A stretch of 64,000 nucleotides of DNA from Thermococcus sp. JdFR-02 (GTDB taxonomy: Archaea > Methanobacteriota_B > Thermococci > Thermococcales > Thermococcaceae): NCBI GenBank assembly GCA_002009975.1, contig MTLP01000032.1:63442-127441 (forward strand), given 5' to 3'. The notes beneath the pieces are model-generated. The model saw only the letters and a list, made by a program, of their open reading frames with translations. It was not told the origin of the DNA and did not search any database. The position numbers and the translations under genes were made by a program. Each line of letters starts with the position of its first letter. Position 1 is the stretch's first letter. Positions 4,121-16,938 of the stretch are shown in pieces.

Positions 4121-4528
4121 TCAAAGCTTAACAATAGTCAGCTCTATTCCAGCATCCTCCTTGTATTGCTGCATTTCATAAACTTCCACTCCGCTTATCT
4201 CCATCACAATTCCGCAAAATTCTATCTGGTCTCCAAGCTCGGTTATCCTTGGCACCTCTAAGACCTTCATGCAATTGACCTTTGTTAAAGCGGTCTTAAG
4301 CATTGACAGTGCCAAGTCCAGATCCACAAACTCTTCGTTAAGGAACTTGCAGACATCTTCAATGATGATGCATTTCAAGCCCGATGAGTTTATTTTTCCC
4401 AGTTGTGCTTTCCTTATAAACTCTAAAGGCTTCATTGACTCAACATCATAACCTAAACTTTCCATGAAAGCTTTAAATTTTGAAAGATGTTTAGAGGGAA
4501 GAAAATAGAGCTTTGAAGCGCTCGTCAT
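4121..4528 (-). CDS. Hypothetical protein, translationally coupled to the methyltransferase
   Basis: ATGA overlap with the DUF1156 gene stop; 135 aa. Confidence 0.65.
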   Translation of the reverse strand: MTSASKLYFLPSKHLSKFKAFMESLGYDVESMKPLEFIRKAQLGKINSSGLKCIIIEDVCKFLNEEFVDLDLALSMLKTALTKVNCMKVLEVPRITELGDQIEFCGIVMEISGVEVYEMQQYKEDAGIELTIVKL

Positions 4529-14713: not shown

Positions 14714-16938
14714 GTACCTCCTAATACGTTAATCCTTCTATATAACCTCGAAAGCTTAATTAATGTATCTTCAGAATCTATAGCACTTTCTAAAAATATC
14801 AAACTCCTATTAAGTTCCCTTTCAAAGATCTCAATCTCTGTAGGCTCGATCTCGTAATTATATGTCTCATCGTAGGGAAAAACAAAGAGATCATAGATGA
14901 TAGCCCTATCTTTATTAGGAGCTTTTCTAAGTACCCTTCCCCTTCTTTGTATAAATTCTCTCGGATTTGTGCTACTTGCCAAAATTATTGCTGAGTCGCT
15001 TGCTGGAATATCAACGCCTTCATCCAGACATTTAATTGACAATAGAAACTTGACAGCTCCTTCCTCAAAAAGACGCAAATGTTCAATCTTTTTCTCCTTT
15101 TCTTGGATACCTAAGTATTTTAGGAACTTATATCCTCTTTTTGCCATTTCCTTTGCCAAGATATCTAACTGCTCCGTATCTTGGCAATAAATAAGGCATC
15201 TACCCAACTTATCTCTATTTTTCTCAATGATTTCTATTGTTTTCTGGATTTTATTCTCTGCTTTTTTGATTATTTTAGCTCGCTTTAGTAATAAGTTCTG
15301 GAGTAACATTGCCTCACTCTTGTCCTCCAGAATATCAAGAGCTTCCTTAAGTGAAGTGTCTTCTGACAAGTTGTACTTGGCAAGTATCCGTTTATAAGTA
15401 CTGTAAATTTTTCTTGAGATCTCTTTGTATTGATATAATTCTTCATCTGTAAGAGGGACTATTTCAATGTGATATTCATAGGGAACTATCCTTTCATCCC
15501 TAATTGCATCTTTTAGAGAATATTCATAAATTATGCCTCCAAAATAATCCATAATCATTTTAGTTCCGACATCATCCCAGATCCTTATAGGAGTGGCACT
15601 TAATCCAAGTCGTCCCAAAGCGGGATCAAGTTCTTTCATGATTTCTCTGCTCTTTCGAGCACCAAGCCTATGAACTTCATCCACTACAAGAACATATTGC
15701 CCTCTAAGCTCCTGATTTATGACTTCTATGAATGTATCTGAACTAGCAGAACGAATTGTTGCTATTATGAATTTTTTACCATGTTTCTTTTGATATGCCC
15801 ATATAAACTCTCTCAAAAGGACCTTCCAGTTTGGATTTTGACTTGAACAAATTATTATTGGTACATCCACAAAAACTCTTTTGATTTCCCTTATCCACTG
15901 GATTACAAGCTCTTTTGATGGAACCAATAATACTACAAATGTATCTTCAGGCAGGCGCTTGACTGCAAATAACGCTGTTAAAGTTTTTCCACTACCAGTT
16001 GCCATAGAGAGAATACCACACCTATTATTTTTATACCATTTTTGAATTGCCTCTTCTTGATGCTGCCATAATGTAATCTGCGATTTGGAAGCTGGATATT
16101 CAACAAAAACTTCTTCTGGATCAACTATTTCCTTAATCTCTGGAGGTGCAATTTTTATTAGTTCTCTTTTTACAGCCTCAGGGATTGTGTAAGTTCTCAC
16201 TTTAGGGTTTGCATTGTTCCACGTAGCCCAAAATTCTTCCTCAGCTGAAGTTATATATTCTTTCTCAGCTTCTATCCAGCTTCTATGAACAGAAAAGGAC
16301 TCTGCATTGTCAATCCATCCCCTTGCAGTTTCATTTATTGATCCTTCAATATGTAATTTGTTTCCGTTAAAATCCTCAAAAATCGCAAATTTACTATGCC
16401 AGATTGCTTCACTCTTGGTATCCTCATATATGATATCAATGTCATGGGGTATGGCTAACCTAATTTCCAGTTTTCCCTTTGAAACCAACCATGCAAGAAC
16501 CTCAAGTCTCTTTCGTACTATAAGATCTTCAAGATTTATATTCTTAAGTTCTTCCAAGAGTTTTTGTTCGATTATCTCTGGAGGTGTTTTTAATCCTCTG
16601 TTAATTGCTTCAACATCTTCTTTAGATAACAAAACTCCTGTTATAAGATACATTTTTTCACCTTGATTAATAAAATAAGCAAGACCCCTTGCTGCTGCAG
16701 CTAATACTGAAGAAGAAAAGTACCCACTTGCTCTATAATAATATTTGGAATTTGCTATCACCGGAATAAAAAATTCAGTGAGGGTGTTATCTAAGGAAGT
16801 ATACCTTTTTTTCAATTCTAATCTTTTGAAGTTTCCATCAGACTTAAATGGTGTTATCAAAATTATCCCCACTGAGAAAATAGAGTTCATGAATCTAATA
16901 TACCTTTCGACTCGTAATAATGAGTAAACACCACACAA
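14710..16938 (-). CDS. PLD (HKD) nuclease-SF2 DExH helicase fusion (Dnd-associated restriction enzyme-like)
   Basis: SGYFSSS, WHSKFAIFED...GSIN (HKD), ATGSGKT, DEVH, SAT, LDEGVDIP, QRRGR. True start is probably a TTG near 16860. Confidence 0.85.
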   Translation of the reverse strand: MCGVYSLLRVERYIRFMNSIFSVGIILITPFKSDGNFKRLELKKRYTSLDNTLTEFFIPVIANSKYYYRASGYFSSSVLAAAARGLAYFINQGEKMYLITGVLLSKEDVEAINRGLKTPPEIIEQKLLEELKNINLEDLIVRKRLEVLAWLVSKGKLEIRLAIPHDIDIIYEDTKSEAIWHSKFAIFEDFNGNKLHIEGSINETARGWIDNAESFSVHRSWIEAEKEYITSAEEEFWATWNNANPKVRTYTIPEAVKRELIKIAPPEIKEIVDPEEVFVEYPASKSQITLWQHQEEAIQKWYKNNRCGILSMATGSGKTLTALFAVKRLPEDTFVVLLVPSKELVIQWIREIKRVFVDVPIIICSSQNPNWKVLLREFIWAYQKKHGKKFIIATIRSASSDTFIEVINQELRGQYVLVVDEVHRLGARKSREIMKELDPALGRLGLSATPIRIWDDVGTKMIMDYFGGIIYEYSLKDAIRDERIVPYEYHIEIVPLTDEELYQYKEISRKIYSTYKRILAKYNLSEDTSLKEALDILEDKSEAMLLQNLLLKRAKIIKKAENKIQKTIEIIEKNRDKLGRCLIYCQDTEQLDILAKEMAKRGYKFLKYLGIQEKEKKIEHLRLFEEGAVKFLLSIKCLDEGVDIPASDSAIILASSTNPREFIQRRGRVLRKAPNKDRAIIYDLFVFPYDETYNYEIEPTEIEIFERELNRSLIFLESAIDSEDTLIKLSRLYRRINVLGGT

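Follow-up and report, generated by a model that had tools for sequence, protein, structure and literature searches.

A BREX-related DUF499 module and a dnd-independent PbeABCD operon share one conserved block in Thermococcaceae

In the 64,000-nucleotide stretch of Thermococcus sp. JdFR-02 DNA that we analysed (contig MTLP01000032.1; the whole stretch is called the window below), two operons of putative defence genes meet tail to tail. The left operon pair encodes a DUF1156-type adenine methylase, a DUF499 ATPase, a standalone PglZ-family protein and a DUF7680 protein, whereas the right operon carries the genes of a PbeABCD system. An original prediction had suggested that the two may be halves of a single hybrid machine. 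All eight open reading frames (ORFs) of that prediction were verified, as was the 4-bp overlap of two stop codons at the junction: it reads TTAA, in which TAA is the stop of the plus-strand gene and the reverse complement that of the minus-strand gene. The gene set was thus right as far as it went, with a conserved 135-amino-acid (aa) gene overlooked on the methylase side. The methylase operon runs on via this gene and further genes to an EVE-domain gene, and the divergent region between the methylase and DUF499 genes presumably holds promoters. The Pbe ORFs overlap one another by 4-7 bp and lie in the order A-B-C-D in one operon. Since this operon is convergent to the DUF499 operon, the two are separate transcription units. 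The coordinates of all features are collected in Table 1.

As originally described, the DUF1156 methylase is divergent from the DUF499 ATPase and PglZ genes. The best PADLOC name for the methylase is HmaB (233 bits), and the protein also matches Pfam DUF1156 (25.8 bits) and NF042963 (172 bits, cut-off 1000). It has a DPPY motif at residue 543, and its N-terminal two thirds are hypervariable across strains. The ATPase matches Pfam DUF499 (124 bits), PADLOC HmaC (215 bits, again the best name) and NF042962 (139 bits, cut-off 1200), with a Walker A motif, GGGKT, at residues 92-96. No second copy of either gene was found by tblastn in the host genome, an assembly of 44 contigs that is 99.99% complete. 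The 304-aa protein scores 18 bits against Pfam PglZ, under the cut-off of 25; PF08665 is however present in 16 of its 26 homologues, among which the invariant residues include D94, T124, T126, D224, H225 and H281, and its DHG and HGG motifs align to PorX in a weak match.

The 126-aa protein that ends this operon had been taken for DUF3780-like. It turned out to be a DUF7680 protein instead, and Pfam detected no DUF3780 in the window proteins at E<=0.01. DUF7680 comes after PglZ in 38 locus ORFs. Its predicted model (predicted local distance difference test score, pLDDT, 93) shows five strands and a helical bundle; Foldseek gave no match to the PDB at E<=0.001, VIA-align wide returned helical bundles only (best Z 6.7), which assigned it to no family, and PDB profile searches with the DUF7680 and PbeD alignments gave chance-level matches only. 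By jackhmmer, the 135-aa gene was found 3′ of the methylase in 11 loci, among them the distant BrxL-type loci L013, L030, L035, L045, L048, L050 and L052. The Atlas scores of its product are at most 0.86, below the threshold of 0.9.

The right half is a complete PbeABCD set, consisting of a helicase of superfamily 2 (SF2) with an HKD nuclease domain, a small protein, a Cys-hook ABC ATPase and a DndE-fold protein. PbeA is recognised by PADLOC with 694 bits and further matches TIGR04095 (363 bits, cut-off 600), PLDc_2 (21.7 bits), ResIII (89 bits) and Helicase_C. Its HxK..D..GSxN, GxGKT, DExH and QRxGR motifs are invariant in all seven aligned homologues. Because homologues of PbeA align only from residue ~35, translation probably starts at an internal Met near 16890. 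The N-terminus of PbeA weakly matches models for the HKD-helicases of DUF499/DUF3780 systems (NF042964, 86.7 bits with a cut-off of 1100; PLD_Helicase, 55.5 bits). PbeC had been called a DndD-like SMC ATPase. The relation to DndD holds, the assignment to SMC does not: the protein is an ABC ATPase of the DndD/PbeC type, with 251 bits for PADLOC PbeC versus 214 bits for the best DndD model, and its 179.6 bits against the DndD equivalog TIGR03185 are under the cut-off of 245.85, so that it is not DndD proper. Its Walker A motif is GDNGFGKT. In the middle of the coiled coil a CxxCG motif (residues 339-343) is kept in all five aligned homologues; the hook is CxxC here, and the name 'CxC' comes from PMC10853773.

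PbeD (121 aa) has no family match at the sequence level, in the PDB either. When its AlphaFold model (pLDDT 80) was compared by Foldseek, the DndE entries 4lrv, 5wtu and 7x4e ranked first, with a probability of 1.0 for 4lrv and 5wtu and 0.63 for 7x4e, TM-scores of 0.50-0.70 and a best E of 5e-3. A PbeD homologue also follows PbeC in genome G009 (contig C61). PbeB is 48-62% identical to its homologues in the clade; it (14456-14713) weakly matches DndC models and PRK06850 over their last ~60 residues (E 1e-3 to 7e-3), which hints at a relationship to the C-terminal region of DndC. A complex prediction that paired PbeA (726 aa, seven aligned rows) with DUF7680 (20 aligned rows) scored 0.24, 0.48 and 0.25 against a mark of 0.32, which weighs neither for nor against an interaction.

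Table 1. Features of the block, in window coordinates
Feature	Position	Strand	Basis or remark
EVE-domain protein, 163 aa	1159..1650	-	Pfam EVE 90 bits; outer end of conserved block
Accessory gene, 352 aa	1667..2725	-	No Pfam match
Accessory gene, 178 aa	2920..3456	-	Weak matches: PD-Lambda-3_A E 1.5e-4, TnsA-like N E 0.049
Accessory gene, 226 aa	3437..4117	-	No family match; only in G128 and L027
Conserved partner gene, 135 aa	4121..4528	-	4-bp overlap with upstream methylase; no Pfam or PADLOC match
DUF1156-type N6-adenine DNA methyltransferase, 951 aa	4525..7380	-	HmaB, DUF1156 matches
Divergent intergenic region, 82 bp, A+T-rich	7381..7462		Between methylase and DUF499; sequence read directly
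DUF499 (BrxC-like) ATPase, 1108 aa	7463..10789	+	DUF499, HmaC matches
Standalone PglZ-family phosphatase/nuclease candidate, 304 aa	10786..11700	+	Weak PglZ match and homologues
DUF7680 protein, 126 aa	11687..12067	+	Pfam DUF7680 44 bits; module's universal last gene
TTAA, overlap of two convergent stop codons	12064..12067		Read from sequence
PbeD, DndE-fold protein, 121 aa	12064..12429	-	Predicted model matches DndE structures
PbeC, DndD-related ABC ATPase, coiled coil and CxxC hook, 678 aa	12426..14462	-	
PbeB, small fast-evolving protein, 85 aa	14456..14713	-	PADLOC PbeB 21 bits, E 6e-5
PbeA, HKD (PLD-family) nuclease and SF2 helicase fusion, 742-aa ORF	14710..16938	-	

To place the left module, relatives of its PglZ were gathered: 26 proteins, 5 genome loci, 37 metagenome contigs and, from a search of 133 genomes of the phylum, 3 other genomes. 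A sample of Thermoproteota held relatives in 3 of 401 genomes, all three already in the set, and a scan of viral contigs gave none among 24 pattern matches. The layout that recurs in these relatives has the 135-aa gene following the methylase on one strand and, divergent from them, DUF499, a 475-aa gene, PglZ and DUF7680. The 475-aa gene encodes BrxL_N and BrxL_ATPase (358-376 bits) without the C-terminal domain. Of the 43 rows in our locus table, 31 allow the DUF499-PglZ junction to be read, and in the other 12 it is cut off or unrecognised; a BrxL_N and BrxL_ATPase gene lies between DUF499 and PglZ in 23 of the 31 readable loci. Hence the part that the left module was expected to be missing is not an SNF2 helicase-nuclease, as had been proposed, and a BrxL-type AAA+ motor is what its relatives carry. 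No DrmD/BrxHII-like helicase was matched by tblastn in the window or the 42 related loci.

The remaining eight rows, seven of them distinct (L023 and L028 are the same), lack BrxL: the window, L022, L023, L027, L028, L029, L030 and L047. The DUF499 and PglZ genes of the window share 4 bp. In the PglZ tree the BrxL-less rows fall together to one side of a branch (support 93/73), so a single loss or gain suffices to explain them. The 135-aa gene and DUF7680 are conserved throughout the loci of the PglZ family. The BrxL-type loci are of interest in themselves. The six-gene, mostly archaeal BREX-related module (L013:1714-11293; also L014, L035, L043, L045, L048, L050, L052 and others) consists of the 135-aa gene, the DUF1156 methylase, DUF499, a short BrxL (~475 aa, without a Lon/HKD domain), standalone PglZ and DUF7680, with no SNF2 helicase, and falls outside the three published BR subtypes as these are described in the text of the reports.

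We compared the locus with the published systems that it resembles. Closest to the left module is the Type-3 BR of Rakesh and Krishnan (PMC12839542; bioRxiv 10.1101/2025.10.09.681413), which is described there as a DUF499 ATPase, a methylase, a BrxHII-like helicase without nuclease, a standalone PglZ and, in 82% of taxa, an iSTAND protein. The DUF499 ATPase, the DUF1156-type N6 methylase and the standalone PglZ gene are common to both. In contrast, our locus has no BrxHII-like SNF2 helicase and has DUF7680 and the 135-aa gene instead; no ORF of the window was recognised as iSTAND, the 135-aa protein giving sub-threshold leads only. The most distant match in our set, L017, has the published Type-3 BR layout including the SNF2 helicase. 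Hma, which supplies the PADLOC names of methylase and ATPase, differs in that it has no PglZ, and the locus here has no HmaA. With Type-2 BR (DUF499-DUF1156-DUF3780-HKD-helicase) the locus shares an HKD-SF2 helicase beside an ATPase, a methylase and a small alpha+beta protein. However, the helicase of our locus is a genuine PbeA by score (694 versus 55 bits) and shares a separate, convergent operon with PbeBCD. The small protein belongs to DUF7680, DUF3780 being undetected, and there is a PglZ gene as well.

For the right module the reference is PbeABCD of Haloterrigena jeotgali A29, which has the same four genes in the same order (PMC6459918). It belongs to the dndCDEA-pbeABCD system of Xiong et al. 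2019, the one Pbe system studied experimentally, whose defence needs DNA modification. Here no dndCDEA is adjacent or in the genome, the neighbour is an adenine-methylase module, and the host is a member of the Thermococcaceae and not a haloarchaeon. A DndD/DndE-type module free of Dnd had seemed unusual in the original prediction. In fact 320 of 553 PbeAC pairs are solitary according to the same report, that is, without dndCD within 10 kb, and of these 155 are within 10 kb of methylases, so that solitary Pbe near methylases was already reported in 2019. Its text proposes a pairing of solitary Pbe with methylation and raises inactivity as one possibility (PMC6459918). A second report equates Pbe with CxC-ABC/DndE systems, reports that they are found in the absence of Dnd and alongside cytosine methylases, and suggests that PbeA acts as a nuclease (PMC10853773). 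Its main text does not mention BREX, PglZ or DUF499, nor does the main text of the BREX preprint (bioRxiv 10.1101/2025.10.09.681413) mention Pbe, CxC, DndD or DndE, and our searches of main texts found no paper joining Pbe to a DUF499/PglZ module. Payne et al. (bioRxiv 10.1101/2024.01.29.577857) report that no genes are embedded in Hma loci more often than those of ABC-ATPase systems. With these embedded or neighbouring defences, and with the 'auxiliary effectors' of PMC12839542, our locus has in common that an ABC-ATPase nuclease system is tied to a DUF499/methylase system. The difference is that PbeABCD stands at the end of the module, convergent to it and not between its genes, and the main texts do not mention Pbe in that role.

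That dndC and a cognate SNF2 helicase are missing, as noted before for the window, was borne out by the whole-genome search. Neither the window nor the rest of the genome yielded a DndC (best TIGR03183 score 30.7 bits with a cut-off of 290.4; PADLOC DndC 41 bits), and the DndC models give matches in 5 of 14 control genomes too. The 628-aa protein on contig C20 to which both scores belong was considered and rejected as DndC; it has another architecture (PUA, PAPS_reduct and ferredoxin), and its scores are far under the cut-off. The window and the 18 kb to its left contain no HmaA-type SNF2 helicase(-nuclease). The SNF2 helicase on contig C25 was likewise rejected as a missing HmaA, with 485 bits for DrmD versus 318 for HmaA. 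Its neighbours are DrmMI and a DruE/DrmA-like helicase, so that the genome's one SNF2 helicase of the HmaA/BrxHII type, being DrmD-like, belongs to a DISARM-like locus. This locus (G000:C25:5997-20627; L011, L012) encodes DrmD (974 aa, 485 bits), DrmMI (1382 aa, 387 bits), two unnamed genes and the DruE/DrmA-like helicase of 1661 aa. Near it lies a second EVE-domain gene, 58% identical to that of the window.

Next to the gene content, we looked at the conservation of the block as a whole. From the EVE-domain gene to PbeA it is present in the same order in genomes G128 and G096, which are from other genera of the same family, and on the metagenome contigs L027, close to G128, and L028, identical to G096. 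In G128, G096 and L027, too, the matches to DUF7680 and PbeD are ~5 bases apart. A contig from another study is identical to the window over 7899-15839, and another run (X6) holds a variant that is ~5% diverged across both halves. The two operons thus stay together as one block in three genomes of three genera. All these cases come from one clade, however, and so represent one evolutionary origin.

Conservation within the block is uneven. Between the window and G128, DUF499, PglZ and DUF7680 are 92-97% identical in nucleotides, PbeA 77-91%, the N-terminal two thirds of the methylase 76-84%, and PbeD, PbeC and PbeB 56-82% (73, 65 and 62% in amino acids, respectively). Two segments, at window positions 5339-7437 and 12000-14900, are thus hypervariable, and identity elsewhere in the block is 92-97%. 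At 5662 and 13611, contigs of runs X3 and X5 diverge from the window, which suggests that recombinant strains co-exist. The two segments do not vary together: between G128 and L027 the methylase segment is 74-85% identical in nucleotides and PbeBCD 86-96%, and between the window and the X6 variant a piece of the methylase is ~86% and PbeC ~95% identical. This independent change argues against a shared sequence specificity, though it leaves room for a sequence-independent reading of N6-methyladenine (m6A).

None of the nine core ORFs is truncated in the window or G128, and their catalytic motifs are intact. In G096, methylase and PbeC are each frameshifted at a short homopolymer (G5 and A9; L024:4373-4436 and L023:13268-13301), and in L027 PbeA is in three pieces with two frameshifts (L027:12599-14786). 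These frameshifts could be assembly errors, phase variation or decay.

Each module was also found on its own. Outside the clade, PbeD, PbeC and PbeA are absent from all 23 loci in which 1 kb or more of sequence past PglZ can be seen, and with the window query no PbeA was found in four genomes that have BrxL-type loci. In L051, which is on the BrxL-less side of the tree, the 1.1 kb downstream contains neither DUF7680 nor Pbe; the contigs of L030 and L047 end before the sequence 3′ of the module would show. In genome G033 (contig C3; L025:12598-19134) a DUF499 ATPase (1004 aa), a PglZ protein (312 aa) and a methylase (877 aa) lie on one strand between housekeeping genes. This trio has neither helicase nor BrxL, and PbeA was not found in G033 with the window query. 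Conversely, four genomes from two sister families (G013, G015, G009 and G025) give no match to the PglZ alignment but carry PbeA at full or nearly full length. PbeC adjoins PbeA in three of them, and G025 shows only an N-terminal piece of PbeA at a contig end. In G009 (C61, L098:427-6226), where PbeA is split into two ORFs, a 341-aa N6_N4 methylase is directly upstream of PbeA-PbeC-PbeD and a TPR protein downstream. These loci speak against the claim that each half lacks what the other supplies: BrxL is the missing motor of the left module, the motor-less trio stands alone in G033, and Dnd-free Pbe systems are common.

The EVE-domain gene at the outer end of the block has 82-86% amino acid identity in G128, G096 and L027. 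The 352-aa gene has a 71% match in G096/L028 and was not found in G128/L027. The 178-aa gene is confined to the Thermococcaceae clade and its Atlas neighbours are unnamed clusters; a PD-(D/E)XK assignment was rejected, the Atlas leads being at the chance level of 0.77. On the two sides of the block lie other genes of defence type, for AbiEi (254 bits) and a nucleotidyltransferase (Polbeta/NTP_transf_2), at window positions 429-1058 and 17086-17989, both on the minus strand. The nucleotidyltransferase gene overlaps a 110-aa ORF, and the block copies in G128 and G096 lack both.

We favour the reading that two systems of known types are linked tail to tail in one mobile block and act as two layers, not as one enzyme complex, and put its probability at just under 0.6. 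From gene content and motifs we infer the following activities and the independence of the layers. The block of ~16 kb (window ~1160-16940) would be a mobile unit carrying both systems. In the first layer, a BREX-related DUF499 system, the DUF1156 methylase with its DPPY motif would mark host adenines, and the DUF499 ATPase, PglZ, DUF7680 and the 135-aa partner would exclude unmarked DNA in a BREX-like manner, in this lineage without the BrxL-type AAA+ motor of most relatives. The second layer would be a dnd-independent PbeABCD (CxC-ABC/DndE) system in which PbeC and PbeD together scan DNA and the HKD-helicase PbeA acts as effector, with PbeB as a possible regulator.

Several observations weigh against this independence. 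Pbe abuts DUF7680 in every locus of the clade that is readable downstream, namely the window, G128, G096 (= L028) and L027, four of four distinct sequences. The surroundings differ: the block of G096 is flanked by ABC-transporter genes and tRNA-His (~360 bp from the EVE end), that of the window by the nucleotidyltransferase and AbiEi, with no tRNAs nearby, so the two modules move together as a unit. As the branch of the window lacks BrxL, its left module may need another motor. The Pbe system studied so far needs DNA modification, as described in PMC6459918, and the only modification gene of the block is the DUF1156 methylase. Finally, the double frameshift in methylase and PbeC of G096 fits a coupling of the two, a single case that may be an assembly error.

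The same observations would fit one coupled system, in which Pbe reads the m6A mark of the DUF1156 methylase or docks on DUF499/PglZ, supplies the lost translocase-nuclease and restricts unmarked DNA. The missing dndC, the supported BrxL-less branch, the N6_N4 methylase of the related archaeal Pbe operon in G009, the 155 solitary PbeAC pairs near methylases and the distant likeness of the PbeA N-terminus to the HKD-helicase of DUF499/DUF3780 systems also point in this direction. Nevertheless, all co-occurrences reflect one evolutionary event, L051 lacks Pbe in its visible downstream sequence despite its place on the BrxL-less side, G033 keeps the motor-less trio with no PbeA found, the variable segment of the methylase and PbeBCD do not co-vary, and the operons are convergent. 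We regard a single coupled system as possible but clearly the less favoured explanation. That the block merely carries a linked pair with one or both halves crippled, the DUF499 module being left with methylation only after the loss of BrxL and Pbe being silent without phosphorothioation, would fit the missing motor gene, the lack of dnd genes, the inactivity raised for solitary Pbe in the text of PMC6459918 and the frameshifts in G096 and L027, but is improbable given the intact core ORFs and motifs of the window and G128, an identical copy in runs of other studies, and PbeB, PbeC and PbeD that have diverged to 62-73% in amino acids yet stay open, which fits selection rather than decay.

If the two layers are independent, the block is a further example of ABC-ATPase defences riding with DUF499 systems. 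A more specific form of coupling, which we offer tentatively and consider rather doubtful, is a chimeric restriction-modification machine: in one lineage of Thermococcaceae the BREX-related module would have lost BrxL and captured PbeABCD as its translocase-nuclease, with m6A instead of phosphorothioation gating Pbe. Over half of the known Pbe systems are without phosphorothioation genes, and the basis, if any, on which these tell self from non-self has not been demonstrated by anyone. If true, the chimeric machine would be the first concrete answer on the self mark of 'solitary' Pbe. The block provides a clean case for this question, as it is dnd-free, tied to a single adenine methylase and conserved across three genera, in a family some of whose species are genetically tractable.

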